A DNA stretch of 60,637 nt, the filler included, from Hausera hauseri (Eukaryota): assembly GCA_046269625.1 (NCBI GenBank). It is 11 parts of 11 records of this genome, joined end to end, with 100 filler letters (N's around TTAATTAATTAA, not from the genome) between each part and the next. Parts side by side here need not be neighbours in the genome. Positions count along the whole stretch, not along the records: positions 1 to 8,603 come from JBJURY010585444.1; positions 8,704 to 13,310 come from JBJURY010507686.1; positions 13,411 to 20,854 come from JBJURY010014566.1; 8 more parts are not named here. One strand, given 5' to 3'. Positions within the stretch are counted from its first letter, which is position 1. Each line of letters opens with the position of its first letter. Position numbers and translations under genes: made by a program. The notes beneath the pieces are model-generated. The model was not told the DNA's origin, searched no databases, and saw only the letters and a list, made by a program, of their open reading frames with translations. Of this stretch, positions 1 to 54,809 are shown piece by piece.

Positions 1-1637
1 GATCTTTGTTTCTCTTTTCTTTCTCCTTCCTTACTTCTTTTCTTAAATAAGTAGTCAAAAACGGATGTTTTCCTTTTAGTCGTTTTTCCGCTTTCGGTTT
101 CTAGTTTCTGAGGAATTTCGGGTATCTTAAATAAATAATCCTTTGTGGAACAGCATGTACTAGGTCTTTCTTGTATTTGCTTCTGATTTTGTACTGCTTC
201 GACTTTCAACCCTTGTATAGTTATTTGATAGTTCCACCTTGGGGTAATCTCAACACTTTTGGGTGGAGAATATGGGCGAAAATTTCTGCGATAACGTGTG
301 TTAAAATCTTGGGTTCTTGGAAAATTTAGTAGGTTCTGTACAGGATTATGGGGAACCCATTCATGTTCCAACTTCAGTCCAGCGCTTATATCTCTTAGGT
401 ACTGGGATCTTTGGCTGGCGGTCAATATTCTACTGATTTTAATATTTCCCCCGGTCATAGCTTCTATCATTAACTTAAACCGGCCTTCTGGGGTCAATAA
501 AATATGGCCTTTTCTTTCTTTATCTTTGATCTGTATTTGTTTCACGACGTATGGGTGAGATTCTATTTCTCTTATTCCAGCTAAGTATTCTATTGGTATA
601 TCTAATTTTTTCATTATTCTCTCTACTTGATACCCCACTAAGACGTATCCGTAGAAACATTGTGCCACCTCTTGTTGTACTAATTTGACGTCCTTCCCTT
701 GACTCAATTGGTCTCTTCTAATCCCAGTAACTTCCGCATGAGTTTCAAGCATTTTTTTTATTGGAGTAATAGTTTTCGAATAAATTTCGACTCCGTTTTC
801 TTCCCGGATGGATATTTCGATTGGAATATAATCTTCTTCTCCCTCTCCATAATTTACTGCTACAATTCGGATGTTGCGGTCATTTGCTACCAGCCTAAAA
901 GACTGTAGATGATTTTCTTGTTCTGGTTCTGTAGGCCTTTGTCTAAATTTTATAATAGGTAGTACGGCATGTTTTGGTTCTTCTTTGGTCGTTTCAATCA
1001 TCATTTTGACTGGCAAAGCGGCTACGCGGAATTCTAGTTCTCTATCCTTGAAGTTCTTGCTATCGAACACGAACGTACTGAATCGGCTTTGTCTTCCTTG
1101 GAAGGAATCCCATTTTTGTTCTTTCAATCGATAATATATTTCTCCGTCGGCTAGATGTACATATATTCTTTGTTTCTCGTCTGCTTGATATTGAGCGATT
1201 TGCTTAAAGGGATAGGCTCTGGCGTCTTTATCTTCCCTCCATGCGTATAGATATACTGTCCGGTTTTCCTCGGTCATTCCCTTTAGACCATTTGGGATTT
1301 CGCTGACTCTATCATACTGGACCATATTTTTTTCTTGTAATTCATTATTGATCTGTCTGTATATGGCTTTAGAATTGGGAATTCGTACGGTTACAATTTT
1401 CTGCAAAAATTTGTCGATACTAAGTCGGCTTGTAGCGTTTTGGGTATCGTTTTCGGTGTCGACTCTAATTCGGCTCGCATTCTCCCCTGCGTCGATCCTA
1501 AGTCGGCTAGAATCCATTTGCGTCTGGTTACTTACCAATCTGAAGAAAAGGAGATAAAGGTTAGTTCTAAAACAAAGGATTGTTTTGAACCAAAACCAAT
1601 TCTTTGTTTGATGACAGAATAACCTGTTCTGTAATTG
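1..1637 (-). CDS. ORF missing from the ORF track (open to the window edge, ~545 codons, first ATG at 1517): degenerate DEDDh (REX4/ISG20-like) exonuclease-domain protein
   Basis: Hand translation has no stop from 1637 to 1 and is in frame with pol. It contains RIVAVNY...IEISIREENGVEIYSKTITP...HAEVTGIRRDQLSQG...VQQEVAQCFYGYVLVG...GIREI, which follows the REX4-like pattern and aligns with ORF 38330..39691 (IPNGLKG vs IPNNLKG; TGIRRDQL vs TGIRESDL). Confidence 0.8.
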
Positions 1638-4600
1638 TCAGGTTATTTTATCATATGGATCTACAGGATTCTCTAAGTCCCTTAGTTCCCATTCCGAATT
1701 TTCATGGCGCTTAAAATAACAGTTTTTGGTGACTAATCGAAAAATCGCAATTAATATGATGAGAACAATTATTGACGATACCATGATAGATACGATTTTT
1801 AGTGTAGTTGATCCCATCGGTTCTTGTGTGGTAACTCGAGTTGTGATCTGCTCATCTATATCCTCATAAGCGTGGGATTCTGTACGAATCTCCCTTAAAG
1901 TTCGTATTGTAATGGTCTGATTTTGCTTATTTTTTGCGCATATTTGCACTATATAATTGGTTTGTGATTTTAATAAATTACATTCTGTTTGATAATTATT
2001 GCTGAATAAAGTTAACATTTGATTATTATACGTTGTCCGACAATTTATGTATATATCATAGTTTTGTTTCTCTTCCACGGAAAATACCATCTTAGACCGA
2101 TACACCGAATATTTTATAGGAATACTTCCTAGTTCTCCTTTAGGCACGCTGGTCGGCGTAATGGTTGACGTAAGGGTACTAATTTGAGTAGTTGATTTTT
2201 TTGTGGTGGTCTTTATTGAAATTTTCCAAATTTTATGTTCCGGGTAGTAAGTTCGTAGTTGTACACTTGGCTTATTCGGCTGTATTTTATACAAGTCAAA
2301 TCTTATTTTGAATTCTCGGTTTACAGGTATTTTGCAGAAAGGATTTTGCACAACTGCTCGAATAGAACAATATTCTATTTTCGGTGTCGGTCCATCTGTT
2401 GCTTCGAACATAATACTAATTTCCTGACTAAAAGTTAATCCTGTTTTAGCGTTTACTTGGATACATTGCTTGTCCTTATTCACAGAAATCCTCTGGATAT
2501 TTGCATCTAATATTTTTATATTTGGATCGGTGTTTCGGATTATCTCGTCCGTTTTTGCCTGAACCGCATCCTTTTGTTGTGGCATTTGTATTATGAGCTC
2601 GGAGGCTATATTGGCTTGAGCCCCAAACTTATAGGAATAGAATAGCTGAAAGCTATATCTATAGATTTTTCCGAATTCTAGATTACAACATCTCTTGTGA
2701 TTTCCGTATGGAAAATCGCATACACTCATTTCATCCCCATTAGTTATAAATGTTATCTGAAATCCTATGTGTCTCTGAACAGGATTGTCTGTTTTAAACC
2801 ATGCACATGGCTTTTTCCAATCCATGTCCCGTATTCTGAGTGTCTGTAAATTCTGGATATCCCTTTGTTTGGCGCTTGATTTTACCGTATGTATATATGC
2901 GGTTTTTAATGATAAAGCTAAAATTATCTGAACATATGATATCGGTCTAGTAACTATCGACGAAGTTTTCACTTCTCGTTGGCGCAAATTATAACGTTTG
3001 TTTGGTCGTATTTCGGTCTTGACGACCCTTTGTACGGATACAACCTCTTCTTTTCCGTTCTTGTTGATATATATTGTGGTCGGTGTCACTCGGATTACTT
3101 CATACGGTCCTCTACCCGTACGAGTTAGTTTCAGCGAGGTGCCTTTTTTAGCTACTGGATAATGTACATAAACCCAATTTCCTTGCTCTATATTATGCGG
3201 TTTCGCTTTCTTATCATATTGCTTCTTGAATTGCCCTTGATATTCTTGAGATAGTTCCTTAGCGATCTCCCAACACCTTTTTAATCGCATTTGTAACACC
3301 TCTGCAAAATTCTGCTCTAAATCTTCCGGACTAACTGTGTATGGCGTCATTCCTAAGTCCGTAGGCAACACGGCTTTACGTCCATACATCATAAACAGTG
3401 GTGTAAATTTCGTTTCTGGATATGGCGTGGTATTAATTGCAAATTGAGTTCCTTCTAAAAATTCGTCCCAATCCTTTTGGTCCTTAGCCACTACTGTTGA
3501 CAATATACGCATGACGGTAGCATTCATTCGCTCGACCATCTCGTTGCATTGGGGATGATATGCGGTAGTCGTTAATCGTTCGATTTCAAATATCTTAGTG
3601 ATTTTTTCAAATAATTCACTGGTAAAATTTCTTCCTCTATCAGTTAGTATCTGATCTGGTGGTCCGTAACGGCAAATAATTCTTCTTACAACGGCTTCTG
3701 CCAAGGTTTCGGCCTTTTGATCTATCAATGCGATCAATTCAACAAAGTGAGTTAGGCGATCAATACATGTTAAGATATACTTATTGTTCTTGTGAGTTGC
3801 AGGAAGAGGTCCTACGATATCCATTGATATGGTCTGCATGGGCCTATCGGGTACGTTTATTGGTTTTAATTCGGCCATGTAGTTCTTCGTCTTTTTCTGT
3901 TTAGTTACACATACTTTGCAAGCATTTACCCAATTTTTTACGTCGATGTAAATACTAGGCCAAAAGTATTTATTCATTATTCTTTCTAACGTTTTCTTCC
4001 AGGACATATGTCCGGCTAAGTATGAATCATGTTCGGACATTAGTACTTCGGTTCGTAAACTTTTTGGAATAACTATCAGCTTCTTTCCTTTTCGTTCGTA
4101 ATATAAGATGTCTTTTTCGCTTCCGTCATTTATGACGAGATATTTATGTCCGTATCTGTGTAAATGTTTCCTTAACTGTCGCGCTTTTGGTATGATTTTC
4201 TTTGTAGCAAATTCTATAATTTGCGGAATAACTTTGTCGTTTCTTTGTTCCCCTGAGATCCTGATTGCTTTATGTGTCGTTAATGCGCGTTGACGGTCTA
4301 TTATTTCCTCGAGTTGACCTTTCTTCATTACAGTGATTGCGCTTACTTTAGTCTTTAATCTCGATAGTGCGTCAGCGTCGACATGTTTATTTCCTGGCTT
4401 ATACTGGAATTCAATATTATATCTGGAAATTTCTTCAATCCATCTATTAAGTCTGCACGTCGGGTTATTGGCTCGACCCTTTAAGGTCGTAACGGCTTTA
4501 TGGTCAGTTACAATTATGATCTTCTGCCCGTAAACATAAACGTTAAAATGTCGAAGTGCTTCTTTTACTGCTAGAGTCTCTAATTCCGTAACGGAATAGT

Positions 4601-5198
4601 TTTTCTCAGCTTTCTTCAAAGAACGTCCGCCATAAGCAATTGGATGTTCTAATTCTTCATCTTCTCTTTTCTGCGCTAATTCGTATCCGATACCTTCTTT
4701 ACTGGCGTCTGTCTTGATTATAAATGGTAACTTAAAATCTGGGTAGCGTAAGACGGGTTCGCTTGTTAATATTTTCTTCATTTCATCAAAAGCTTTCTGC
4801 TCAACCTCTGTCCATTTCCATTTAATCCCTTTTTTAAGCAGACGATAAAGAGGCGCATTGATTTTTGAATTATCCGGTACATAGGTTGCATAGTACCCGC
4901 AAAGCCCTAACCAGTGTCTTAGTTCTTTCTGGTTTTGTGGTTCCATGCAGTCCGATATTTTATTCAATAATGATTTATCTGGTTTTGATCCCCCTTCTCC
5001 AACTATATGTCCTAAGTAGGATACGGCATTTTGAGCCCATTTGCATTTCTTCGGATTTAGTTTTAGCCCGGCCTGTTCCAGTCTAATTAGTGTGTGCTCA
5101 ATATCTCTTAAGTGTTCCTCTTCAGTTCTCGACGCTATCATTACGTCATCCAGATACGCAAAAGCGTGATCCAATCCCATTAGCATTTTATTTATCAT
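1638..5198 (-). CDS. pol: Pol C-terminal part (RT core, RNase H, integrase) fused to a signal-peptide-like segment, three FN3-like repeats and a TM helix
   Basis: AYLDD; IIKTDAS...NYSVTELETLAV...TDHKA; HDSYLAGH...CKVC; MDIVGPLP...TDRGRNF...VERMN; GPY. Then ISYVQIILALSL (~2880-2945), Cys-containing beta repeats including LKSQTNYIVQICAKN, and TM IVSIMVSSIIVLIILIAIF (~1740-1800). Confidence 0.92.
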   Translation of the reverse strand: MINKMLMGLDHAFAYLDDVMIASRTEEEHLRDIEHTLIRLEQAGLKLNPKKCKWAQNAVSYLGHIVGEGGSKPDKSLLNKISDCMEPQNQKELRHWLGLCGYYATYVPDNSKINAPLYRLLKKGIKWKWTEVEQKAFDEMKKILTSEPVLRYPDFKLPFIIKTDASKEGIGYELAQKREDEELEHPIAYGGRSLKKAEKNYSVTELETLAVKEALRHFNVYVYGQKIIIVTDHKAVTTLKGRANNPTCRLNRWIEEISRYNIEFQYKPGNKHVDADALSRLKTKVSAITVMKKGQLEEIIDRQRALTTHKAIRISGEQRNDKVIPQIIEFATKKIIPKARQLRKHLHRYGHKYLVINDGSEKDILYYERKGKKLIVIPKSLRTEVLMSEHDSYLAGHMSWKKTLERIMNKYFWPSIYIDVKNWVNACKVCVTKQKKTKNYMAELKPINVPDRPMQTISMDIVGPLPATHKNNKYILTCIDRLTHFVELIALIDQKAETLAEAVVRRIICRYGPPDQILTDRGRNFTSELFEKITKIFEIERLTTTAYHPQCNEMVERMNATVMRILSTVVAKDQKDWDEFLEGTQFAINTTPYPETKFTPLFMMYGRKAVLPTDLGMTPYTVSPEDLEQNFAEVLQMRLKRCWEIAKELSQEYQGQFKKQYDKKAKPHNIEQGNWVYVHYPVAKKGTSLKLTRTGRGPYEVIRVTPTTIYINKNGKEEVVSVQRVVKTEIRPNKRYNLRQREVKTSSIVTRPISYVQIILALSLKTAYIHTVKSSAKQRDIQNLQTLRIRDMDWKKPCAWFKTDNPVQRHIGFQITFITNGDEMSVCDFPYGNHKRCCNLEFGKIYRYSFQLFYSYKFGAQANIASELIIQMPQQKDAVQAKTDEIIRNTDPNIKILDANIQRISVNKDKQCIQVNAKTGLTFSQEISIMFEATDGPTPKIEYCSIRAVVQNPFCKIPVNREFKIRFDLYKIQPNKPSVQLRTYYPEHKIWKISIKTTTKKSTTQISTLTSTITPTSVPKGELGSIPIKYSVYRSKMVFSVEEKQNYDIYINCRTTYNNQMLTLFSNNYQTECNLLKSQTNYIVQICAKNKQNQTITIRTLREIRTESHAYEDIDEQITTRVTTQEPMGSTTLKIVSIMVSSIIVLIILIAIFRLVTKNCYFKRHENSEWELRDLENPVDPYDKIT

Positions 5199-5216
5199 TC
5201 TGGTAAATATGGCTGG

Positions 5217-6509
5217 TCAGGTGGTAATACCAAACGGCATGACGTTAAACTCATAAACACCGTCATGTGTCTTGAATTCCGTTTTATAGCGATCTTTGTC
5301 CTCTATTTTCACTTGCCAATATCCGGATTGTAGGTCCAGAGTAGTAAACCATTTCGCTCCTGAGAGTCTGTCTAAGGCTTCCTTCACTGATGGTAAAGGA
5401 AAACAATCTTTCATCATAAGATTATTTAGAGCTCTGTAGTCGATACAAAATCGGTGTTTCGTAGTGCCTTTCTTTTTAACCATAAGAATGGGCGAGTACC
5501 ACGATCGATAACTGGGTCTAATTATGTCCGCCTTCAGCATCCGTTCGACTTCCTTTGTTATCTCGGGTTTTAATGAATGTGGTGGAGGGTACCATTTCGG
5601 CATTTTCTGATCTTCTAAATCTATTTCTTCATTTGAACCAGGCTTCTTCTTGAGCGGGATGGTTAATTTTAACGCTTTTGCTCTACCAATATCTTCTTCA
5701 TCCTGAGCAATAATCGATTTATAGCGGCATAATAGTTCATAAAATTGGCAATAAGACTCAGGTGAAAACTTGGTATCGACGTGTGGCGGAAACTCAGCAC
5801 ATTTATAAGGTTTTTCTTCTATAGTTATCGACGCTACTCTATATGTATCGCCCAGAGTGGTGTAAGCATGGAGTTTAGTGGGAGTCTGTGCATTGTTCGC
5901 TATTCGGATCGGTACTCGACCGGAGTGTACTCTCGTAAGTACATTACTAAGTGTTATATTAGGATTTAACGTTTCCTTTGGTTCGAAATACACTGGTTGG
6001 TCGTCATCTTGTTGGATTTGCGCGTAAATTATTATTTCCGTTCTTGGTGGGATATTCTCGTCTACCGGTATCCATACTTCTCCAAGTTTCCTATCCTTAG
6101 CGTTTTTAATACCTCTTTTTGATCTAATTTCGATTAACTTCCCTGTTTGTAAGTCAATCGCTATATTTGGTAGCCTTTTTAATAAATCGCATCCTAGGAC
6201 GACATCGTCAGTTAAATGTTCCATAATTGCAAATTCGTGTCGAAAAGTTTGTCCAACTAATTGGATTTCCGGGTTCCATTTAAACATTGGTTTTGACATC
6301 TGACCGAAAGCTCCTGTACCACCCGGATCTTTTATAGATTGCGGGTATAAGTGTCCTCTTAGCGTTTGAGGTATTGAATCATTTTTGATGTAAGATATCT
6401 CGGATCCTGTATCGATTAGTGCATAAACTTCCCAATCCTCAATAATAATTTGGCGAACGGTCTTCCTTCGATCACTGTTCCAAAGCAGTTTGATGCTGTC
6501 TTTGGACAT
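5217..6509 (-). CDS. pol: Pol N-terminal part: aspartic protease, spacer, RT N-terminus; separated from the rest of pol by a premature TGA
   Basis: ALIDTGSEIS...VVLGCDLL; SPILMVKKK...RFCIDYRALN...LDLQSGYWQV...MPFG. The junction reads FGITT*PAIFTRM where the sister element has FGLKNGPPTFQR, consistent with a GGA>TGA nonsense mutation. Confidence 0.92.
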   Translation of the reverse strand: MSKDSIKLLWNSDRRKTVRQIIIEDWEVYALIDTGSEISYIKNDSIPQTLRGHLYPQSIKDPGGTGAFGQMSKPMFKWNPEIQLVGQTFRHEFAIMEHLTDDVVLGCDLLKRLPNIAIDLQTGKLIEIRSKRGIKNAKDRKLGEVWIPVDENIPPRTEIIIYAQIQQDDDQPVYFEPKETLNPNITLSNVLTRVHSGRVPIRIANNAQTPTKLHAYTTLGDTYRVASITIEEKPYKCAEFPPHVDTKFSPESYCQFYELLCRYKSIIAQDEEDIGRAKALKLTIPLKKKPGSNEEIDLEDQKMPKWYPPPHSLKPEITKEVERMLKADIIRPSYRSWYSPILMVKKKGTTKHRFCIDYRALNNLMMKDCFPLPSVKEALDRLSGAKWFTTLDLQSGYWQVKIEDKDRYKTEFKTHDGVYEFNVMPFGITT

Positions 6510-8603
6510 CTAGTCACCGATATTTTGTGCCCGTTTATTGTTACTTCTGGGGCGGATACTGTTTTTCGATAACTGTCTTAAGTCTCCGTTTGGATATAAT
6601 TCATTATTTTCTACGTGCAATTCTTCCCTTTCATGAGTACTAATTAGAGGTTCCCTATTGTTAGTATGTAGTTCAGTATGCTGAAAGGTTTTAAATCTTG
6701 GGTTATCCCAAACTGTTGATCTAGTTTCAATATTCTTTGCTTCTCTTGGTGAGTATATCATCTTAGGATCCTCCGTAGATTGGCGGTAACACATTTTACG
6801 TAAAATTCCATATCGTTCCGTTCCTTCATAAGGGTCTTCTACATTAATTGTTCTTTTATAAATTTCTGTCTGATACGAGCTCATGGACCGTTTGTCACAA
6901 TCGTCATAGAATGGAGCTGTAGGAGGTAGCATGGGCAATGGCGCTTTAACGACAGAGTACACCTTATGCCTATTTATTTCCGACAATGCTTCTCCTCCCT
7001 TAGGCTCATCATCATCTGAATTATTCCTTCGTATAACGGTTTTTGCAAATTTTTGTTTCCGTAAAAATATCGGTCTTCCTTTACGTTTACGATTGTAGTA
7101 ATCTACGTGGCGTTCCACGTCCGATTTCCATCTACTCTGTTCGTATGCTTTCAGAAATTTTCCACAAGGCGTTATGATCGCTGTCAATATTTTACAAGAA
7201 AATCCAGTTAGTGTAAAAATTTCGTATCCATTTATTACAGCTTGGATGACTGCCTTAATCATTTGGATTAGAAAGTATATCGCCAAAAATCCTGATGCTG
7301 CCTGTCCGAATATCAAAACTCTTCCCCAAATTTTGTAGAGTATTTCTGTTCTTACTCTCTGATAGTGATTTACGCCAAGTAATGATTCCCATTTAGCTTG
7401 ATATCTGGTGTCGTCTACTACAGACGCCATCGCTTGATTTAGCTCATGTGTTCGTTGTCGTGGGAAAGCAAGGAATTGTCTGAAAGCCTCGATTTCTTTT
7501 GGCCTGTATATGCCTTTCGATGAGGTGTCCTGAAATTTGTCGTCTGTAATCCCTTTTGCTAGGTTCGTTCCCGTCAGTTTGTTGGGAGCGGCGGTAATGC
7601 CTCCATTAGGTAGACTAACCCAGTCGGTTTCGCTACGTCTAAATATGGGCTCTCCCAAGCTTGCTTTACAATCTTTAAGAATGATTGGTCGTGTCGCATT
7701 ATCTAATAACACTCTCGTCAATGGCGTAGCCAATCTTGGAGTATTTTGATAAATGACAGGAAGCTCTTGGATGCAACGTTTTTCTTCTACGTTGATGGGT
7801 ACTTCCCTCTTTTCGCATTCATAGGTTAGCAACACTTCGCCCGTAACTCGACCGAAGATTCCTTCTCTCATAGGAATGATCGGAGAGGCTAATTCCGGGT
7901 TTGCATATATGAGAGCCGTTTTAGTTCTCATAATTTCGGTATCCAGTTTGCAGTCATTCGTAATCATTTTGTTATATAATTCAGTTATTCCGACCTGTCC
8001 TTTATAATAGAAGTAATCGTCTTTGTTTTTCAGACAATCTTCAATCCGAATATCTTGCGTTTCGAGTTTGTAAGTTTTCACATTTATCTCTGTTTCAGCT
8101 ACAAAGAACGCTTCATAGTTTGTAGCGAACATTACTACATCGCAGCAAGTCATCATTTCTTTCTTTATAAATTTTAATCCATGCGGGTCTGAAATTAATA
8201 TAGTCGGTGTAGGATGTTCCGATACATCTTCGCGTGTTCTCGAGTTAGTCTCCGATTTGTCTACATATCGTTTTCCGGTGGTTTCATTAAACTTTAATTC
8301 TTTAATTTTAATAAAATTACAATTTCTCCCAGAAAGAGTTTCCCATATTACGATCGAGCTTCTAAAACCACATGTTCCGTCTTGTATATGAAATTTCTGG
8401 TTCTCGGTGTATAATTTTGTGACACTATGGAACATTACTTTCTGTGGTCAAATTTCTGCTTCATAAAAATCCACAACCACGACATTTGATTCTAATCCTT
8501 TTCCCGTATCGTATTCTGCTCCATTACAATGTCCGCTATGCATATCCAGTCTTCCGGCTACTACTTTATATGTGCTGATTATTTTTCCTGGTTGCATCTC
8601 TAG
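6510..8603 (-). CDS. env: Chuvirus (Jingchuvirales)-like envelope glycoprotein, C-terminal part, with a long cytoplasmic tail
   Basis: The motif series typical of chu-like G is present in order: LYNKMITNDCKLD, GEVLLTYEC, CIQELPV, PLTRVL, KGIYRPKEIEAFRQFLAFP, IWGRVLIFGQAASGFLAIYFLIQMIKAVIQAVINGY. The frame extends from 8435 to the contig end across one TGA at 8448 (Arg in the second copy). Confidence 0.85.
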
Positions 8604-8703
8604 NNNNNNNNNNNNNNNNNNNNNNNNNNNNNNNNNNNNNNNNNNNNTTAATTAATTAANNNNNNNNNNNNNNNNNNNNNNNNNNNNNNNNNNNNNNNNN
8701 NNN
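8604..8703. other. Artificial contig linker N44-TTAATTAATTAA-N44 (also at 13311-13410, 20855-20954, 25680-25779, 32179-32278, 36492-36591, 41642-41741, 46955-47054, 51322-51421, 56324-56423)
   Basis: Ten identical 100-nt blocks; the central 12-mer places stop codons in all six frames. Confidence 0.98.
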
Positions 8704-8733
8704 CATGGGGATTTAAATAAATCGAGAGATTTG

Positions 8734-9200
8734 TCAGTCAACTGTACAAAAAATAAATTCATCAAATAATTTGATCATAAATACATTTTCATTAGTCCAT
8801 TCAATGTATCGTTCACATGACCCATATTCATCATAAATCAATGACATATAACTAATTGAGGTATTCGTATGCTGTGGTGGAGACCATTGAAGTGAAATGA
8901 AATATTCTGTAGTAGTGACATTCATGTTGTCTACACATCCTGTTGCTACTACGGAATAAGAAAATGAGTTAACATGAATTCAATACTTGTATTTATATTC
9001 GTGCATTTTGGAATGTTACATGACCTTTCATGGGTTATCGCACACCATTTGTAATGAGAATGATTTGTTTGTGTGCAAATATTCACAGAGTCATTTCCTT
9101 GTGTCTTGTTGATCCATTTCATACAACTCACTGCAGTAGTATCATCAATGCAGTAGATGAAACAATCTGAAATAACGAGTCGTAAATATAAAATTGAATA
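8734..9200 (-). CDS. Host gene exons: kringle-like domain followed by an FN3 domain (receptor-like protein, partial)
   Basis: CMKW...NICTQTNHSHYKWC...SCNIPKC resembles a kringle. Removing a ~38-nt GT..AG intron (gtattgaattc...ttccgtag, ~8949-8986) joins it in frame to GCVDNMNVTTTEYFISLQWSPP (FN3-like). Confidence 0.5.
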
Positions 9201-12002
9201 ACCATTATCGATTGACAGATGTTCAACGAAATTCAAAAATTAAATTAAAGTGAAAGTAGAAAAGCGACACATTTTAAAATACACCGCATTTCATGTCATT
9301 AAATAAAATAAATTGACAAAAGTTCATTCTGAGTAATTATTTGTTATTTCTATCAAAAACAAATTGATGTTATGACGAATTGAGACACTTTATGTATAAC
9401 TGCTTTATGCGCATCAGTACGTTTTGTTTTAATGTTACGCGAACGAATAATAAAATTATTACGAGAAGTTTTGAATTTTTTTTTGCTAATTTTTAAAACT
9501 TTTGATTGTTGTTCATGAAATGATCTATATTTATTCAGAAATGTTCAATTCAATTAATACGTCACGTCGTTGGTAATTGACAAGAAGAGAAAAGAAAATG
9601 TTTTTGAAATATGATAATTATAAACAAAAACCAAACAAATTTGTTGAAATTAAGAACATTAAGAAAGTAATGCTATCCAGAAACAAATAATTCCCATGTT
9701 GGATAGGTTTGTATTTGTGCCATGATGTTCAATATCTTTTCAATCCTTATCCAAATAAAAGATAGTCAAGATTTGACATGCAACGTTTGACACCAAATGG
9801 TTTTATATGTAAAGTTGCCAAGCGTCAATTAGATTTGGAGAAAGTAAATATTCCAATCAGACTTAGAATCTATATAGAAGTTAAGCTAAAAGCAACATTT
9901 AAAAAAGATGAACTACAAGAAATCATTGAATTTGACATTGAGTCAATGACCTAACTGTGGTGCTATTTTTATGCGAACAACAAATTTAAACTTCCTTCAC
10001 TCACAATCCTCCTATTCGATTATTCAGTTAGTAGACAGTTCCCTGCATGGCAAAAATAGGAATTTACTGACGAACTTTTCAAAGACCTGTTTTTACTTTT
10101 ACCAAAATGTGACAGATTTAACTTCTGCAATTCTGTACCTCTCGAAATGCTAACCAAAAACTTTAACTTCATTGTATGACTGTGAACTATTATGCTTTAC
10201 GTAAAAATATCCACAGTATTATGATTAAGCTGATTAATCCTGTTGAATATAACACTTTACTCTGATCACAAATAAATATTTACAAGTTGCCAAATACAGT
10301 GAATTTGTTTTGGAAAGATTGCAATGAAAAAAAATGTAGAGTAAAAATTCTGAACGGTAGGATTGATGATTATTCTCTTTAGCTTAACTTTCAAATATAT
10401 GCGTATGTATATAAATATATATAGTCTCAATTAAAATTGTTTATCGTTTGAACGAGTAAATGGGATTGAAATCGATGCTCTTTTGTTTTTGATCTGTGGA
10501 CAGACGACTAACAAATAGAGGAGTAAACATATTTTGTGACCGATAGGTCGAATCAGCTCTCTAACACGGATTTTGGATGAAACAACGAATTTAACTGTTT
10601 AATATTGCAAAGTACTTTGGTTTCAAATAAAACGACAATTAGGTTGAAATTCTCAACTGAACAAAAAATCTTAACAGCAACGACAGACAATTTCTGAATG
10701 ATAAAACAAGATCGAAAATACAATAAATGGAATTAACGACAAAACAAAAAACTTTCAACTTCTCAACGATCCTTTTACTTGATTGTATCACGTCTGTATT
10801 GTTTTTAATCCGACTAAATGTTTGTAGCTTTGCAGATTATTTTGACAAGTCACTTCCTATCGACGAGTTTTCTTTTTCTTCTCTTTTTTGTTACTGTTAC
10901 TGAAACCGTATGTAAACGTTGTATCTTCTCCTTTTATTTTAAACAAAAACTTCTAGAAATAGTTTTTTCTTAACTGTGCAACCATCGAGCCGGTTGGGTC
11001 GGTTACTCAATTTCCACGGCACTTATGTAATGTGTATTTACAAAAGTAATTAAGTTCAGATCTACAATTGCTTGTTGCTTATAAAAGTTTAATTTGAAGT
11101 TCGAAAGATTTTGAATTGTGACCAATGGATGCGGCAGACGGAACAAAGTTAAAACAAGTTAGGATACTGTCATGCATACTGCGCCGATGACAAGCGTAAA
11201 AATGAGCAACCTAAGTTGAGCGAAAAAATGATGAAGGAAAAAATTTAATTATTCAATTTTGTTTAGTCCTCGTGATTTCAATTTTTATTATTTTGGGAGT
11301 TGATGTTTGTTGGCTGCCTGGACGGTAGCTGGCAAAATCCAGGAAGCAAGGCGAGAACGGGAAAAAACGCACCAGCCTAGGACGGTCCACGCCAGTCATT
11401 CTGTTGAAAGGAAAGTCGTGTCCTCAACCGCGGCACTACACCAACTATAAGAGTTTTATTTCGATTGGTACATAGTTTTCTGCCACACACTTCAGATCCA
11501 GATAGGATCCAATTCGTTCAACGTAGTTTCCTTTCCTGAGAAGACTGGAGATTCATCCGACTGGGGATTGAAGACCAACTCTCGAATTTCTGCTTTTTCT
11601 TTGAGCTCTTGTTTCTTTAATTAAGTTTTGTTTGACGATTTCGTCTGTAATCATCGTTGTTCCGACATTATTCAGATAATAATCATCTTTGGAAAAAGCA
11701 GTAAAGATCATCGACTTTGTTTGATCGACTAAATCACCAATAGGAACTGGATTGTTCAGTAGAATCGACTGTTTAACATGCACAAATGTATCGGCATTTT
11801 CAATTAAAATATCGTTGGCGTAACCAAATAATTCATGTTGAAAGATCAGATAGGACGTCTGAATAAATGCGGAAAATTGTCCTTTCTTGCTGATGATCGG
11901 CATTCCTAATAAACTGGTTTTCCTTTTTCTTTTGTACAAATTTTAATTTTTGTTTTCAAAAATCTTTGTCCAAAATTATTTTTCTGCTTTCACGAACTCC
12001 CA

Positions 12003-12710
12003 TAATTTAATTAAAATGTTTGATGCAACAATTTAAATGCTCTGTGAAGAAAAAGTCGGAAACCGCAGGCAGCCACAACAGCCCATACGAAACCAAAAAG
12101 TACACAAAATTACGATGGTTTTATTTAATGAACAAATGAGTATATCAAAGTCAGATGTTACACGCAACTTTACACAAACTATTTTATATTCGGATAATAT
12201 TTCAGTTGAATGGCAGAGGAATTGCTCATTATTTCGAGTTTGATATTGAAATTAGTAAATCAAAGTAGTACATTTTCCAGTTCATATTTTGTAAGCCATT
12301 TATGAAGAAAGTGAATCGTTATAATAAGTAACTTACTTAGATACAGAAACGAATTTACAACTTTGTCTTATTTGTTTCAATATCAAACTCGAAATAACGT
12401 CATAATTTTGTACATATTCGTTTCATATTGGAGAATTACTTATGCCAGAAGTGCCGATAACACGACAATTATTAACCGGAACTAAAAAGGAAATCAGCGT
12501 AACCATGACAATTTTCAATGAAATCTGTGCTTAGAAGTAAACTAGTGCCCTTACAAGCTGAATGATCTGTCACAATGACACCATCATACATCACCACAGA
12601 ATCAATTTAAGGTGATTAATTAATTAATCACCTTAATTTAATTAAAATGTTTGATGCAACAATTTAAATGCTCTGTGAAGAAAAATCCGGAACCGCACGC
12701 GGCCACAACA
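12003..12710. repeat. ~75-bp direct repeat (12003-12080 and 12634-12710) with a perfect 30-bp palindrome at 12607-12636
   Basis: taatttaattaaaatgtttgatgcaacaatttaaatgctctgtgaagaaaaa occurs twice; ttaaggtgattaattaattaatcaccttaa is its own reverse complement. Confidence 0.85.
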
Positions 12711-13410
12711 ATTTTGTGATACTATGATATTTGGTTGCATTTAATGTTTCATTAAAGATACTTAAATGAAGAAAAATTACCCAAAATGAAAATGTTCAGT
12801 CTGTTGACCGGAACTGTAACTTGTTTCCCTTTTTTGTCTGAATTGATCCATCTTAAACATCAGCACTTAAGGGTTAGGTTCTTTACTCAAGGACAAGTGG
12901 CTTTTAGTGGAGGTGGGAGTGTCAGTCATGTACTCCTTTCCCATCAGCCTGATTGTGGATTCCAACTCTTGTCCTCGCACTGCAGAACTGTTTTTTGCCC
13001 TTTAAGAGAGGTCGTCTTTAATTAAAAGCACTCCAGGACTTTAGCAGTCTTTGCATGTCTGTCAGATCAGTATGGATCTGATCAAAACCTACATGTAGAC
13101 TGTCTTTGTGTCTTTGCTTTTAAGATGTCTAAGAGCAAAACAGAGGACAGCACAAATTATGCTAGAAATAATTATTATTCCTGTAGTATGCCTGACTCTT
13201 CAATGAATTTTAATAATTTTCTTCCACAGCGACTTTAAGGCATTTGTGACCTTAAGAAAATTCTTGCGATATTATTTTCTCTAACAGTCAGTATTTGATT
13301 TGCCTTGGGGNNNNNNNNNNNNNNNNNNNNNNNNNNNNNNNNNNNNNNNNNNNNTTAATTAATTAANNNNNNNNNNNNNNNNNNNNNNNNNNNNNNNNNN
13401 NNNNNNNNNN

Positions 13411-13990
13411 AGTGCCTTGGCAACCATATCCAAGGGCACCTCCACCTTGAGCAATTCCATATCGGTACTGAACCGTGTGTACTACCTACCAGTACTTTCC
13501 CCGGATCGATATTATCAATTTTTACTTTATAGCGAAAAGGTTTATGCGGGTTTTCCCTCTGTTAAGAATTATTCGAAAACCAATCGATATATTTAAATTC
13601 TAACTGCACATTGGCATAGTCCATCATGTGTGCATTCGATTGCACCCAGTGTCGTACCCTAATCATCAATATTGGGACTATCGGAAATCCGATATTATTG
13701 ATTTTTGCATACTTGCACATGTGCTGCACACTTGCACAGTGCGCCAATCGATGCATCTCGATGTGCCCTATCCATTTGCACAAAGTGCAGATCCATTCGA
13801 TCAATACTACACAGTGCAGCGATCGATTTGTGAAAAGTGCAAAAATGTTCATAGCAATGATGCCTAACGGCACCGTTGCTAGGCACTCTATGAGTCCATA
13901 GTGCACCGGGTGCATTATCGATAGGCACATGTGCCATATCGATTCGCACACCCTCGGGGTGGGGCAGAACCGCCATATTCATACTACTTG
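13411..13990. repeat. TGCA/TCGA-rich repeat family; truncates the second glycoprotein copy
   Basis: Its reverse complement matches 41742-42330 (e.g. gcaaaaatcaataatatcggatttccgata...gtgcagttagaattta). Confidence 0.85.
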
Positions 13991-15500
13991 CATTGGAGTA
14001 GAAAAACGAGAAATTGTCTAAATTCCTCTACTTCTTTCGGTCGGTAAATACCCTTTGCAGGAGTATCTTTAAACTTATTATCAGTTATTCCTTTTATTAA
14101 GTTTGTTCCGGTTAACTTGGTGGGCGGAGTAATTATACCACCGTTTGGTAAACTTACCCAATGGGTTTCGCTACGTCTAAACATCGGTTCTCCTTAACTG
14201 GTCTTACAGTCCTTTAGAATTGTAGGTTGGGCGGAGTTTGCTAGTAATACTCTAGTAATTGGCATCACTAATTTCCGTGTGTCCTGATATATTATTGGAA
14301 GTTTTTGGATATATCTCTTCTCCTCCACATCCTTTTTCTCGCATTTATATGTCAGTAGGACTGCTCCGGTCACCCGACCAAAAGCGCCTTCCTTCATCGG
14401 AATTATTGTTGATGCTAGCTTGGGATTTCCGTAAATTAAAGCAAATTTGGTTCTCATGACTTCTAAGTCTAGTTTGCAATCGTTCATTATCATCTTATGG
14501 TATAAGTCAGTAATTCTGGCCTGTCCTTTGTAGTAGAAATAATCATCTCTATTTTTCAGATAATCCTCAATTCGAATATCCTGAATCTCAAGCTTAAACG
14601 TTCTGGCATTTATCTCCGTCTTAGCTACAAAAAATGTTTCGTAATTAGTAGCATACATTACCACATCACATCTAGTGAGCACATCTTTCTTTACGAACTT
14701 TAGCCCGTAAGTATCGGAAATTAGTATGGTAGGCGTAAGCTGCTCCGCTACATCTTCTCGCGTTTTCGAGTTAGTGTCCGTACTACCTATATAACGTCTC
14801 CCTGTCGTTTCACGGAACTTAAGTTCTTTAATTCTAATAAAATTGCAGTCAGTTTTGGTTGGGGATTCTAAAATCACTACGGAACTTCTGAAAGCGCAAG
14901 TGCCGTCCTGAATGTGACACTTGTAGTTTTCCGTATAGAGCTTGGTAACACTATGGAATATTAGTTTTTGTGGGCGCATTTCGGTTTCATGGAAACCCAC
15001 AACCACTACGTTCGACTCTAACCCTTTTTAGTGTCGTATTCTGTGACGTTACAGTGTCCCGTATGCATATCCAGTCTTCCCTCTGCTACTTTACATACTC
15101 TGATTATTTTTCCTTGTTGCATTTTCAGTTCCATATTGTCCCATTTTATTCTTCCGATCTCTCTGCCCTGCTTACAATGCTGACGTTCCAAGTTCATTGG
15201 AATTGGCGGCGTTGCTGCCTTTATTATTAATGAATGTCCATGTATTAACCCACAATGAAAGATACTACGAGATCGTCGCAACATACATTCTATTCCATCT
15301 AATGCGACTAGTTCACGTTGTTGATACAACACATAATTCTTCTCTTTTGTCTCCAATTTGTGTGGCCTTGCATCTTCACACATTTCTAGGTCCATCAGTG
15401 AATATTTTTGGCCAAGCTTAAATTTGTCACAGTCATATATTGTGACTGCTCCCATTTGTCTTACTAACAGCATCACAGTCAGAAGATTAATTAGCCAATT
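13984..15500 (-). pseudogene. env: Second, decayed copy of the chuvirus-like glycoprotein (N-terminus and ectodomain)
   Basis: Signal-peptide-like WLINLLTVMLLVRQMGA, then VTIYDC...YSLMDLEMC...ECMLRRSRSIFHCG..H. The remainder aligns residue by residue with 6510-8603 (FHSVTKLYTEN, PTILISD, KGIYRPKE). Frameshifted near 15018 and 14190. Confidence 0.88.
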
Positions 15501-15551
15501 CTACTTGTTTCCCCGATTATTTCCGGCTAGGTTTCGTATCATGTCTTCGAA

Positions 15552-18500
15552 TCAATTATTTCCAAGGGAGGATCCATTTTGATGCTTTTCTTTTTCGAAT
15601 AATTTAGACCAATTTATTTCTCGGGGTAGTTTCCTGGCAGATCTCCACGCGAAACTAGTGACTTTGTTAAATTCATTTTCCCAAGCTGGATTTGTTTTAA
15701 TTGTTAAATACAGTAGCACTTTTCTTAACTCTTCTATGGTATCCTCTACCATAATCTTTTCGATCACCGATTCGTCGCTTAAGGTGCTTCTCGATAATTT
15801 ACAGCAGAAGTTTTTTATTGTTCTGGCTGCATTTAATATAGATCTCTTTTTTTATCTAGTATTTCGTCACACAGACTAGACTGGTCCACTATGCGTATTA
15901 GATTTTCATAAGTTCATTCAACTCCTCGTTTTCCGCACTAAAGGTTGGTATCAACATTTGCCTCAATTCCCTAATCAAATCTCCATTATAATTAACTTCT
16001 TTACGTATTTTTCGCAGCCTACCTATAGTACGTTTCTGTCTCGCGATAACTGGTGGGATCTCACTGGTGGGTACTAAATTCTTGTCATATTGTTCTTTGT
16101 CTTCGTCGGTCTGCAAAAACTCAAAGTATATCGCTGCATCTCAAACTCCCATGATCCGTTCTCTCATTGCTCCGTCTTCGCTTTCCTTGTGGCCTCTTCT
16201 TTTGTTTCGTCAGTAGTTATCGTCACCATGACACGATCGGTTTTTTCTGGGATAATCCCGATTTCCGTTAGTTGCTCCAGGTCGTCTAATATTCTACCTC
16301 GAAAAGAAAGTCTATAACTTGGCTCATTGGTATAACCATTACTCTTTAACCGCTGTACTACATCTCTCAGTGATGAAGGGGTAGTGAGTTTGCATTCTTT
16401 CTCGTTCATCCAGTCTGACGTAATTTTTACTTTAATTGTCTCTTCGGGTCTTGTCCTTAATATTTTGCCATACTCTTATATCAAGAGTTTCGGCACAACG
16501 TCATAAACCGTACCTTCACTGGATAATTTGGTCAGGGTAGGAACTTACTGTCTTAACTGATTTTCGGTCAGGTTCACATTAATTAATTTAATTAAATCGC
16601 TTTCGGTGTGTGTCAAGTTCAGAAGCATTCCCACATTGGATCTCTGGTCCGACGGGCAAGTCTCCGTTTCACACAACTGCACTGGGGTTTTCGGATTCTC
16701 GGAGACTACTGCACTCAGATACACATCCCATTCATTTTCATTGTCGGGCAGTCCGAAATCAATTTCCAACGTCTCTATTGGCTGGGCTACGTTTACGTTT
16801 TTAATTGCTTCGCTTAGTTCGTGCAGCATTGATTGTATTTTAATCATTTGCGTCGTTCGGAAACAGCGTCTGTTTCCGGAAGTTTGGCTTAATACTGTTA
16901 ACAACTGACATAATTCTTCGGTTGTTATCAGTCCATTTTCCTAATAATTGGTTAGTTCGGAGGCTACGTCTCTTTGCCATCTTTGCACAAATTGTGACTT
17001 ATCAGCCTTTTCTGCTTCCATGAGAGCATAATTGTTTTTGTAGACTTCGAGCTCCTTGGCTAGTTCGTCTAACCTCACCTCTCTCTGTTTAGTCCTAATA
17101 CAGGTTTCTTTGACCTGGCGTATCTGGAGTAATAATCGTCTTATTTTCTCCTCACTGATTTCTGCCATTTCTACCATTAGTAACGCTAGCTCATACATTT
17201 AATTAATCGCTTTCGAGTCCGGGTCGATAGCATCTAGCAATATCTTCACAAACTTGACTTCCGCGAAGCTGAGATGATGGTCGTTTCTTACTCTTGTTAG
17301 TTCGGTATGACACCTTTGATCCGTTCCGATCATCCATTCTTGTGGCCGGTGTAAGAACTTTATCGCTCCTTCTATAGTCAATCGGTGGTATGGGAAGATG
17401 TCTAAAATTTCAAGATCTCTAGTTGAGATTTCCTCGATAGATTTAGTGGTCAATTTTTGGATTCCTTCTAGGCAGACATTTCATAATCCCGGGTAGAAAC
17501 TACAAGTCATTTTCCGTTTATCCGTAAAGTTTCTTTCTTCGATAATTATATATATATCTTTCAATATCGTCGTCTCTTGTTTTCTTTTCATAAAGTTCAA
17601 TTGGCATAATGTATTAAATGGGGTCCTACTATCTATTTCCGCTCTCATTGTATCCAGATTTCGTGAATCTTCTTCTAATTGTTTTCTTACTGTAGGCTTA
17701 CTTTTTGGGAAGTCTTTCATACAGTCTTCAACTAATTTACTCAGTCTCGTCATTACTTGAGACTATTCGTCTAGCTGATTAGCGATATTCGACTTCTCCA
17801 ATATTGTTTTGTTCAGCATTTTGTATGCGTCTTCTAACTCATCATCCGGGCCTTTGATGAAACAAATGGTCTGGTATGCGTAGTTGAATTTATCCTTATA
17901 CTCATAGGGTTTAAGGATGCACGCCTTAATTATGTTCTGTGTTTCGTCATTGTCCAATTGCATGATTCATTTTCTCAAACTGCATATTTGTGACCTTTTT
18001 TCGGTTTCAATCTTAACTCGATTTTCCAGGCTCGTATATTGCTTCGATACGGTAGAGGTAATTTTAATTATTTGTATTAATGGCGGGATATCCATTGCGT
18101 TTATACCCAACATTTTTAGATCCGTTTCATTTTGTTCTTTGACCGGTTTTTCTTTGAGTCACCCTACTATGTCGAATCTAATTTCATTCATGATGCGCTT
18201 CAGGTTACGCGTTACCCTTTTTAATTTTGGATTTTCCTCTAATGTAGTCAGTAGCCCTTGGGCCTTTTTATTCTAGCTCCAACATCCTCAATATGTTTGT
18301 CCTATACCTTGGGAATTCTTACTCCGCTTTTTATCCACATTTCTAATTCGCATTTCCATTTCTCTAATAATTCTGGGGACACTTGTTCAGGTTGCTCTAG
18401 GTCCATAGCTTCGCTTAGTTTTCCTTCGTTGTATAGCTTTATTTTTTGTATAATTTTTCTACAAACTGTTTCTCTTTACCAGAAATGTCTGTCTGTTTGC

Positions 18501-18856
18501 TCATTTCTTTGAGTTTTTCTAGGTTCTGTTGCACTACATCTGGGTTGAGGCAATTAATCCTCATTCTCTTTAATTCATCGGCGTTTTTCCACAAGCGTCT
18601 GATTTTACACTTTTTATGATCGGACTTCTCACTTTGTTCGGTCTCTTCTTCGCTAGTAGGCAATGGACATATAATTTATTTCGTTTACAGATCCCGCTAC
18701 TTCTTCGATTCTGATGGGCGTAGCTGGGTTAATTTCCGGAGTGTTTAAAGTAAACTCTGTATCGCTTTCTAAGGCGATTCCTGCTTCTCCCGCTCTATCT
18801 AATTTTTCTTTTGTCATCGGAGATCGCGAATGATTCTTCCGTTTTCTTTTTAACAA
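15552..18856 (-). pseudogene. Fragmented accessory coding region between gag and the glycoprotein (charged, coiled-coil-like segments; function unknown)
   Basis: Chain of same-strand K/E/R-rich ORF pieces, several abutting in frame (17199/17198; 15552..15767 is in frame with G). Confidence 0.65.
16164..16440 (-). CDS. Ubiquitin-like (beta-grasp) domain within the accessory region
   Basis: IKVKITSDWMNEKECKLTTPSSLRDVVQRLKSNGYTNEPSYRLSFRGRILDDLEQLTEIGI aligns without gaps to ubiquitin residues 1-61 (RLSFRGRILDD vs RLIFAGKQLED). No C-terminal GG. Confidence 0.7.
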
Positions 18857-18932
18857 TGGCCTACAACCCTATCCTTCGTAATTTTTAGTATTAGCGGTTC
18901 AATGAATTCTTTCTCCGTCATTTTTTATCGTT

Positions 18933-20250
18933 CTATTTACTGTTTCCATCATATATTTCAGTCTTTTTCAATTCTTCCGTTTCCTTATAAATCGTAGGAA
19001 CATTCCTTTTACGTGCCATGTCAGTCAGCTTTGGAGGGGCGATAGAATGTTTATATTCAGTTTCTGGTTCACGAAGGCCGGGGTATACTTCTAGTAATCG
19101 TAACTTGTGCTCATACTCATTCCTAGCCATCAAAACTTTGGGGTCATTAGTATCCGGTTGGGCTTTTAAGAAACGTCTTAAACCCTGTATATCGATAATC
19201 ATACCCGTGTCTTTACGGTTGCAATAAATTGCTTCTAAATTCTCATTCCTAATCACATTAATTTTACTAGGCTCAACAAACGAAACACTTCGTGTATTTG
19301 GACAGGACCTCACCACGTGTCCCTCTTGTCCACATGTGTAACAGATTAAGTTACCATTTCTACCAACCCTTTGTCGACCGTCTTCGTTTACTGGGGATTT
19401 CGGTCGACTTGCATTCCTATTGTAGTTGATTCGACTGAACTGGTCTAGAGTTCTCATTCTGACGATTATCATAACGTCGATTATCATTCTGCCGATTTCC
19501 ATTGTTAAAATTTCTGGCACCGTCTAAACGTCTATCCAAATTATAATTTGGCCTATTGGATGAACTGTTCCGGTCATTGTCAATATTTCGGTTACCATAC
19601 CGATTACTTCTATAATCGTTGCTACTGTTCTAATTTCTATTACCATAATTTCTGTTATTTTGCATGTCATTTATATCATTTCGATTTTTGTCATTACATT
19701 CATGCCGATCATTATTTCTGTCGCTTTTGTCATTGCTTATAGTATATCTGTCCAGTGCCATTTCTAAATCTTGGGCAAGCTGTAAGGTTTTATCCAAATT
19801 CTCTGGTCTTGCTAAAATCAACTGTTTCACTATGTCTCTTGACCAAATGTCATTTATTAATTGTGTCATCATCATGACGTCTAAGTCTGGAGGAGTTGCC
19901 TTTTCTGCGGCTTCGCGTCCTGCTTCGTTTTTAGTCTTGGCTATATTTGCTATTTTTAACGTGTTTACATAACTGTTTGCGAGTGTCTTCAGTGCAAATG
20001 CAAACTGGATTATTTATTCGCCCTTCTGTTGCATCCTATTCTGGAAGGCCATGAGTTTTTGTTGATGGGTTACTGTCGGCAATAATTTTCGGTTCAAGGC
20101 TCCTACCAAGGGGGACGAAGATTTTTTCTCGTCATCAGTGAGTTCACTATAGGCATCAGCGACCAAATTCTTCATGTTATATAGTTGATAACATTTCAAC
20201 TATGGAAGTTGCTCTGGTGCAACTTATTCCGTGGGTTCACTACGGTGGTT
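18933..20250 (-). pseudogene. gag: Gag with CCHC zinc knuckle, frameshifted
   Basis: FQNRMQQKGE, LILARPENLDKTLQLAQDLE, an N/R/D-rich linker, and CYTCGQEGHVVRSC. Confidence 0.85.
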
Positions 20251-20268
20251 CAGCTACTATAAAGGCTA

Positions 20269-20854
20269 GCCTGCACCTTCCATAATGTTTCTCCCTTTTT
20301 ATATATATTTATTCATCATACAAACAAGCACACCACAACAAAAATTAAAAATGACCAAATTTACAAAAGAGAAACAAAACTTTATTGATACAATAAAAAT
20401 AAATAACAAAATTAAACGGCTGCTTTCAATTATTAATCAATACAAAAACCTCGTACCTGTAGCTAAACCAGCTTCCGTCGACGATTGAACAATCAACCGG
20501 TCATCCAGTTCATTCGACATCTGTCTGTCGGTACCGTTTTCCAAACTGCTTTGTGCATTCATCGTATGTTTGGGAATGGAAATTCTGTCGTAAAACTAAG
20601 ACGATTATTAAAATAATTTACAAGTTAACTGGCTTACCAACAAAAGGTCTTCAGTAAGAATTCTTCTATCACTGCTGTTTTCTTCGCGGAAATCTGTCGT
20701 AGAGAATGGCGTCCCTTTCGCAAAAATTTATAAGTTTTTTGTGGTCATTTGGACGCAGCTTATATAGTATTTTGGACGACCATTATCGTTAATCAAATCT
20801 GGAACGATAACCAAATTGACGTTTGGGTTTCCACATGGGTCCGGAAATTAAAAT
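20269..20854 (-). repeat. Probable 5' LTR (3' end at 20286, truncated by the linker) followed by a putative PBS (20269-20282)
   Basis: On the minus strand: TATATAAG box near 20760, AATAAA signals, end ...GGGAGAAACA, then TTA and TGGAAGGTGCAGGC (imperfect tRNA-Ala-type PBS) just before gag. Confidence 0.45.
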
Positions 20855-32178: not shown

Positions 32179-32278
32179 NNNNNNNNNNNNNNNNNNNNNN
32201 NNNNNNNNNNNNNNNNNNNNNNTTAATTAATTAANNNNNNNNNNNNNNNNNNNNNNNNNNNNNNNNNNNNNNNNNNNN

Positions 32279-54400: not shown

Positions 54401-54809
54401 TTAGTCGTTTTTCGTTATTAGCAGCATTGCAAATTCGTAAGTGGATCTTTCCGTCTCTCACTTTTTCCACGTGTGGAGCAATAATTACGTTATATTTTTC
54501 CATTGTTTGTGCGAAAGGTTCAAAATATATATATGTGGTGAGTAATCTGTCTTCTATTCGACCGGGTACTATTATTTCGGAGCGTGGTGGAATTATGACA
54601 TCTTTTGTTAGCGAAACTGATCCTTTGTGTTGTTCCTTATTAAAGGTTTTTAATTGGCTTGTCTTTAAGTCAATATAAGCATTCTCTAACTGATTTAATA
54701 CGTCACATCCAATCAGTATATCGTTAGTCAAATTCTTGGCTACTATAATAGTATAGTTTATTATTTGGTTGCCAATCTTAATTTTTACGTCCAATAATTC
54801 CCACAACAC
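51422..54809 (-). CDS. pol: Uninterrupted Gypsy pol (protease C-half, RT, RNase H, integrase), same clade as 39692..41641
   Basis: ILIGCD; RFCIDYRALN; YIDD; ATDAS; HDGLLGGH...CKLC; MDITGPLP. Its C-terminus LHMPLSKKGKTSKLDRPYKGPY...KVHVNRCKPA is very similar to the start of 39692..41641. Confidence 0.95.

Follow-up and report, generated by a model that had tools for sequence, protein, structure and literature searches.

The window analysed here, a 60,637-nucleotide stretch of DNA from Hausera hauseri (GCA_046269625.1), consists of 11 contigs joined by spacers (contig 1, positions 1-8603; contig 2, 8704-13310; contig 3, 13411-20854). Contig 1 is probably a degenerate copy of a Ty3/Gypsy retroelement that is highly repeated and likely belongs with the giant Burro-like elements. 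Intact relatives of the element encode in one reading frame a polyprotein that would be threaded through the membrane of the endoplasmic reticulum (ER) and processed into the components of an enveloped particle. On its minus strand, Pfam and profile searches identify a fusion glycoprotein (G), protease (PR), reverse transcriptase (RT), RNase H (RH) and integrase (IN), in Gypsy pol order, followed by an ectodomain resembling fibronectin type III (FN3) domains, a transmembrane (TM) anchor and an exonuclease.

These modules share a frame with four stops in 2867 codons; the two alternative frames contain 237 and 221. One stop lies inside G, whose N-terminus falls outside the contig end, and a single stop separates the tail of G from the protease, which is in the same frame. 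The features of Ty3/Gypsy elements are present: the PR-RT-RH-IN order, an H2C2 and rve integrase with a GPY/F tail, and an RT of Gypsy type. Pol relatives likewise bear Gypsy-type domain sets. A spacer of about 230 amino acids (aa) lies between protease and RT, and a Pfam scan gave no dUTPase match there. Behind the second TM segment a short tail ends at a stop (1638-1640), beyond which an open reading frame (ORF) of at least 545 codons follows.

The same order is found in intact relatives. A HMMER search with G against 1.84 billion representative sequences gave 555 matches at E up to 0.001, and layouts were scanned in 16 of the 150 relatives listed. Among 13 taken from the top 18, protease follows G in 11 and RT follows G in the same protein in five; the remaining three of the 16 have other layouts. 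The public contig L002 contains one ORF of 3703 aa that reads gag, two CCHC knuckles, a ubiquitin-like domain (Ubl), G, TM, two protease domains, RT, RH, IN, signal sequence, two FN3-like units and TM; a 222-aa ORF and then a homologous exonuclease ORF lie 3' of it. The layout of L001 is similar (a 3426-aa ORF, open at its 5' end, with a homologous exonuclease ORF behind). G precedes pol in both and in the related proteins P0001, P0003, P0151 and P0173, and the frame from G to pol is unbroken in L002, P0173 and P0018. The order gag-Ubl-G-pol-FN3-TM-exonuclease, which the original prediction had stitched together from non-identical copies, is thus borne out by the single ORF of L002 and the exonuclease ORF behind it. 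Neither the polyprotein encoded by a single ORF nor the AlkB/cupin-like fold ahead of the exonuclease had been recognised in that prediction. A metagenome scan yielded at least three loci from 594 pattern matches, the longest contig measuring 15.6 kb. A word-index search returned no long G relative among 2374 candidates, whereas the full HMMER search found some, and G searches of viral contigs and GTDB genomes gave no confirmed locus.

Several of these proteins have further peculiarities. Retropepsin domains are serially repeated inside the polyproteins of P0151, P0008, P0003 and P0002; P0151 (4844 aa) holds up to seven of them together with ankyrin and C2H2 finger domains. P0001, a full polyprotein with G, pol and membrane protein, is entered at NCBI as a protein of a Flavobacteriaceae metagenome-assembled genome, and is most likely eukaryotic DNA mis-binned into a bacterial assembly.

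Copy number was surveyed in one sequencing run of 15.5 million contigs, at a likeness of at least 85% and with 1700-8603 as target; this run may be the source of the stretch, so that the survey is not independent of it. No RNA run was listed as containing the stretch. On this target 21,372 contigs align, mostly at 85-95% likeness, and 1% of them continue into unlike sequence. All 30 of 30 bins are covered, which places G, pol and ectodomain in one highly repeated family. The stop inside RT looks private to the contig 1 copy. It is very hard to credit, in the face of these data, that one copy owes the junction of G and pol to nothing more than a nested insertion by chance or to a chimeric assembly. 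The window does concatenate unrelated contigs, contigs 1 and 3 belong to different subfamilies, and depth dips around the G-protease junction; but one frame persists over 8.6 kb, all 30 bins are covered, the order recurs in six relatives, and the 3703-aa ORF of L002 refutes an artefact.

The element does not extend over the whole of 1-20854, the range first assigned to it. Contig 2, which lies inside this range, is unrelated to the G-bearing element, and contigs 1 and 3, being only 70.5% identical in nucleotides over G, are sister families and not one element. With the window alone, the order from gag to exonuclease would therefore be stitched from two subfamilies; the order itself is correct, as L002 demonstrates. 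Contig 3 has degenerated strongly, each frame containing 101-210 stops. Its gag, in which a CCHC knuckle is recognisable, its Ubl and a G that aligns with contig 1 are all present as predicted, and a profile of four Ubl sequences (contig 3 and the L001 and L002 units) matches ubiquitin and ISG15. Contig 7 had been described as a diverged sister that repeats the integrase tail, ectodomain, TM and exonuclease, and these modules were found in that order; its added modules are about 18-27% identical to those of contig 1. The integrase tail of contig 10 is 67.5% identical in nucleotides to that of contig 7.

The G of contig 1 shares 30-32% identity with those of L001 and L002, and its best relatives are retroelement-borne, in Gypsy polyproteins. 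The earlier designation "chuvirus-like" is accurate as far as the broad Monjiviricetes family of fusion proteins and no further. Anakin-type BEL/Pao elements with a chuvirus G (Dezordi 2020, as cited in PMC13524379 and PMC12440569) belong to the same broad family, PF24664, but their pol is of BEL/Pao type; in contig 1 the pol is Gypsy-type and the best G matches are Gypsy polyproteins. No solved fusion protein was reached by sequence from the G alignment among the 60 of 94 matches listed. The budding motifs of the original prediction are present, PTAP and YPxnL both occurring in the cytoplasmic tail of contig 1 G. Among 15 G tails, which are kin to one another, YPxnL is found in seven against 1.3 expected from shuffles and P[ST]AP in three against 0.06; one of 16 proteins was without an anchor and one tail was mis-anchored. 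In P0090, a protein of 1000 aa, immunoglobulin domains are fused ahead of a Monjiviricetes-type G.

The segment behind the integrase appears to encode a second membrane protein. In contigs 1 and 7 its signal-like segment is not hydrophobic enough to pass the cut-off applied, and a hydrophobic segment occupies the same place in P0001, P0003, P0151, P0015, L002 and P0173. Such segments follow the integrase in eight of ten proteins with G before RT, the other two ending inside pol; they are absent from P0169, P0190 and P0200, other long proteins of Gypsy type that match PF24664 more distantly. The model of unit 3 of contig 1 has seven strands and matches an FN3 monobody at a VIA Z of 8.6 (rmsd 2.9, 81 aligned), in a range near 8 that can reflect a common arrangement, and most of the 50 rows returned are FN3 domains. 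A profile of 11 FN3-like units drew seven fibronectin chains (E 0.03-0.1) among nine rows, Pfam gave one Fn3 match among the same units (E 0.064), and the top Atlas rows are mostly fn3 clusters (0.85-0.87), taken as a lead only. A profile built from L001 and L002 alone matches unit 3 of contigs 1 and 7 (1e-6 and 2e-5) and, weakly, P0151 (0.033), with no match in the other 12 natural targets or in any of 20 shuffles. A two-sequence ectodomain profile gave just two weak, unrelated matches in the PDB. The predicted series G-PR-RT-RH-IN-FN3-TM-exonuclease holds in its order and lies in a single frame, while for the three FN3 domains it contained, the modelled fold is well supported for unit 3 and weaker for units 1 and 2. 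Its proposal of two different membrane proteins agrees with the hydrophobic segments predicted around both the G and the FN3-like ectodomain. L001 has an extra signal-FN3-TM cassette upstream of RT (4769-5356), flanked on either side by a protease domain; its membrane proteins would then number three.

The FN3 protein could instead act as a decoy on the host surface or a receptor mimic, carried by the same element, like the Ubl, BCL2-like and BIR domains, to control the host. Its fold matches the FN3 domains of cytokine receptors and receptor kinases equally well; the number of units varies, L001 carries its additional copy upstream of pol, and the units are 10-20% identical to unit 3. Moreover, the cargo of Burro is mostly tied to apoptosis and ubiquitin (PMC6431247). 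However, in relatives the FN3 protein is fused in frame to Pol and would be made together with G and Pol for the same membrane, and a post-integrase hydrophobic segment is present in all eight proteins that extend past the integrase. A decoy function is unlikely in our judgement, though still to be reckoned with.

The downstream ORF encodes two domains, and a profile built only from the exonuclease ORFs of L001 and L002 finds both of them in contigs 1 and 7 and in none of 20 shuffles. The second domain is a DEDD exonuclease of ISG20-like type (profile matches to ISG20L2 at E 2.1e-6 and 3.1e-14); this assignment is based on sequence profiles because the exonuclease half of the structure model is poor, with a predicted local distance difference test score (pLDDT) under 50. 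Its ExoI D-x-E is replaced in contigs 1 and 7 and in P0154 and intact in L001 and L002. The "dead" exonuclease of the original prediction is accordingly a feature of contigs 1 and 7, and not of the whole clade. The domain ahead of it, modelled at pLDDT 57-80 over residues 90-220, is predicted to be a double-stranded beta-helix. VIA gives Z 9.3 to prolyl 4-hydroxylase, 9.1 to ALKBH5, FTO, Ofd2 and ALKBH6, and 8.3 to cupins, with rmsd 3.6-4.2 and 5-11% identity to AlkB/2-oxoglutarate (2OG)-oxygenase folds. Sequence searches with this domain gave no match, and no HxD/E iron-ligand motif is visible by eye in four aligned beta-helix domains. Upstream of the Ubl and G of P0016, two weak matches to the exonuclease profile (residues 422-465 and 672-757; iE 0.008) suggest that the exonuclease may also sit on the gag side of the polyprotein.

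Partial parallels to this ORF have been described. In the Juno and Vesta long terminal repeat (LTR) elements of bdelloid rotifers, an extra exonuclease ORF (DEDDy ORF3) also lies 3' of pol, but that exonuclease resembles RNase D, takes the place of env and retains its catalytic residues (PMC5408684); the exonuclease here is ISG20/REXO-like, is fused to the beta-helix domain, occurs together with env and, in this host, lacks its ExoI residues. A large Phalaenopsis Gypsy element similarly has an extra ORF with a 2OG-oxygenase fold, an AlkB m6A demethylase, which is ALKBH5-like by sequence, retains HxD/E...H and is active (PMC9289625), whereas for the present domain only a fold is predicted and no HxD/E is seen.

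The nearest published design is that of Burro/GYPSM1, giant Gypsy elements of planarians that exceed 25 kb and have long LTRs. Their ORF of 4.9-5.1 thousand aa encodes Gag, a Ubi2/SUMO-like domain, BCL2, a mononegavirus-type env, PR, a dUTPase-like domain, RT, RH and IN, with env in frame between gag and pol (PMC6431247). One huge ORF, a CCHC Gag, Ubl, an in-frame mononegavirus-type env, PR-RT-RH-IN and a high copy number are shared, and BCL2-like and ankyrin domains occur in some relatives here (P0005, with Pfam Bcl-2 at E 9.6e-4, and P0151). Gypsy elements with a gB-type GAG-ENV-POL order are also on record from nematodes, bryozoans and flatworms, as is a chuvirus-like G beside a Gypsy pol (PMC13524379). 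These HSV/gB-type errantiviruses share with the present element a class III env ahead of pol, but are annotated with three ORFs. Troyka was considered as a relative and set aside; it encodes no envelope (PMC12440569).

Because the gag-Ubl-G-pol design has been published for Burro and gB-type GAG-ENV-POL elements have been catalogued, the new lineage and independent origin announced in the original prediction are not supported. That enveloped Gypsy elements arose here separately and came to resemble Burro by convergence is quite improbable. Such an origin would be compatible with the weak tree placement of contig 1, with contig 3, where no BCL2-like domain was detected, and with the report that GAG-ENV-POL elements are not monophyletic (PMC13524379). 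It accords poorly with the G family, FN3 unit 3 and two-domain exonuclease ORF that contig 1 shares with L001 and L002, and with the Ubl-(BCL2-like)-G-PR order of Burro in these two. Furthermore, six Schmidtea env rows (PMC13524379, supplement 2) match by eye the G of L001 and that of contig 1, and those of L001 and L002 resemble Schmidtea env rows by eye. An RT/IN phylogeny had been proposed as a check; trees were built on 57 of 81 RT-RH rows, then on 36, then on 22 rows over 686 RT-RH-IN columns. The last of these unites contig 10 with L001, L002, P0001, P0003 and P0173 (support 96.9/98), while the placement of contig 1 is weak, and the proposed tie of contig 1 to the L001/L002 clade rests on G, FN3 unit 3 and the exonuclease ORF.

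It is also conceivable, if doubtful, that Repbase entries such as Burro and GYPSM1 already contain annotations of the FN3 protein and the exonuclease ORF. Accessory ORFs are known from Burro, whose internal region can reach 25 kb (PMC6431247), and the rotifer elements show that DEDD-type exonuclease ORFs are known in LTR elements (PMC5408684). Nonetheless, the HHpred re-annotation in section 7 of PMC6431247 names no FN3 membrane protein, beta-helix or exonuclease for Burro, and the main text of PMC13524379 contains neither "fibronectin" nor "exonuclease" and no second membrane protein. The front half of the element is therefore published, and the FN3 second membrane protein and the beta-helix-exonuclease protein are additions for which no description was found in the literature searched, a body that excludes Grohme 2018, Sacco 2022, Repbase and GyDB.

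The Burro-like polyprotein reading, which remains the preferred one, implies a particular route of expression. One polyprotein would cross the ER membrane four times; signal peptidase would free G and the FN3 protein, Gag would be held at the membrane by the first signal sequence, and PR-RT-RH-IN, linked to the G tail at one end and to the second signal sequence at the other, would remain anchored on the cytoplasmic side up to its release by the protease. Flaviviruses build their products from one ER-threaded polyprotein. PTAP and YPxnL late motifs recruit ESCRT, and those of the G tail may do so for budding. On entry, G would fuse the membranes and the FN3 protein could supply attachment; class III fusogens commonly require a partner protein, and herpes- and paramyxoviruses split binding from fusion, whereas retroviruses have a single Env. 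The beta-helix-exonuclease protein may trim, handle or shield the RNA of the element, as a nuclease in L001 and L002 and probably by binding only in this host.

A number of observations weigh against this reading. In contig 1 a stop splits G from the protease, and the model of its ectodomain has a mean pLDDT of 38. The FN3 profile from L001 and L002 finds no match in P0001, P0003, P0015 or P0173. In the 22-row tree contig 1 is a long branch that joins the clade at 47/32, and in the 36-row RT-RH tree it stands elsewhere (support 6). No LTR-sized pair of direct repeats was found in any of the six regions examined, nor was a primer site identified, and no contig was shown to span both ends of an element; the LTR claimed for contig 3 is not confirmed either, its 5' region having no repeat partner in the window. 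Unlike Burro, the window shows no detectable BCL2, BIR, MATH or ankyrin domain: Pfam found none of the last three in the window ORFs scanned, which are decayed fragments, and a profile from six relatives found no BCL2-like domain in the decayed contig 3. The corresponding segment of L001 and L002 reaches Bcl-2 at E 2 only. Kinship to Burro is likely on the strength of architecture and a by-eye match of env, the trees having been built without a Burro sequence.

Table 1. Features of the G-bearing elements in the window (positions along the whole stretch)
Feature	Position	Strand	Evidence or remark
Contig 1
G, class III (Monjiviricetes-type) fusion glycoprotein, C-terminal two thirds	7128..8603	-	PF24664 E 2.1e-44; best relatives 30-34% identical
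G transmembrane segment	about 7263-7319	-	hydropathy
G cytoplasmic tail	6513..7127	-	PTAP about 6912-6923, YPxnL about 6579-6596
In-frame stop, G tail/protease boundary	6510-6512	-	contig 1 sequence
Retropepsin protease	6171..6455	-	PF00077 E 2.6e-5
Reverse transcriptase core, YLDD, one stop inside	5001..5480	-	PF00078 in two pieces, E 2.5e-14 and 4.8e-14
RNase H	4419..4814	-	PF17919 E 1e-34; PF17917 E 9e-32
Integrase: H2C2 finger, rve core, GPY/F tail	3042..4070	-	PF17921 E 1e-18; PF00665 E 2e-15; GPY motif
Predicted internal signal sequence after integrase	2877..2942	-	weak here; clear in relatives
Three FN3-like units (2574-2855, 2223-2528, 1860-2147)	1860..2855	-	strands, structure matches, profiles
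TM anchor of second membrane protein	1740..1796	-	hydropathy 3.17
Predicted double-stranded beta-helix domain (AlkB/2OG-oxygenase/cupin-like fold)	972..1433	-	structure model
DEDD exonuclease, ISG20/REXO-like, ExoI acidic pair replaced	486..880	-	profiles, alignment
Contig 3
G of sister family, with signal sequence; frameshifted, ends before a different repeat	13984..15500	-	PF24664 E 1e-13 and 2e-13
Ubiquitin-like domain	16185..16460	-	PF00240 E 0.011; tblastn from L002 E 0.014
Decayed gag, one CCHC knuckle	19278..20200	-	PF00098 E 1.1e-6; matches L002, P0173, P0008
Non-coding 5' region, putative LTR of the original prediction	20200..20854	-	without repeat partner in window
Contig 7
Diverged sister: IN tail, signal-like segment, three FN3-like units, TM, stop, beta-helix, exonuclease	38330..41641	-	
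Contig 10
Stop-free PR-RT-RH-IN, same broad clade	51422..54845	-	Pfam, tree

The remainder of the window is of mixed content. The repeats of the window are suggestive of an animal genome. Three contigs (20955-36491) carry ordinary decayed Gypsy elements with mutual identities of 64-69%, tied to the G-bearing clade only via pol. Pieces of a fragmented protein-primed type B DNA polymerase (PF03175) at 43528-46281 are presumably Polinton-like, and a repeat at the start of their contig recurs at the end of contig 3 (13505-13857; 76-84% identity). A MutS domain V gene (E 5e-34), decayed, intron-poor and in pieces, adjoins dynein heavy chain pieces (AAA_6 E 3e-51, DHC_N2) on the same strand at 47055-51321; the two look like host gene fragments captured in a repeat. 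Inverted repeats of 76-81 bases with 92% identity in contigs 2 and 11 (11900-12710; 56567-60233) resemble those of non-autonomous DNA transposons.

The analysis provides no demonstration that enveloped retroelements arose anew here. Its two added modules recur across diverged elements, and Burro has been annotated only in part and never tested. The single ORF, together with late domains on the glycoprotein tail, leads to specific predictions for the budding of the element. Should the FN3 protein serve in attachment, this would be a retroelement in which binding is split from fusion, unlike the single Env of retroviruses. In a bolder view, which we advance tentatively and consider possible more than probable, these elements are, in everything except the name, giant enveloped retroviruses, whose ER-threaded polyprotein yields Gag, a fusogen with late domains, a tethered Pol and an FN3 attachment protein, with an AlkB-fold/ISG20-like protein as RNA guard. 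Were this true, entry would be divided between a fusion and an attachment protein, and the clade would be spread well beyond a few planarian Burro families.

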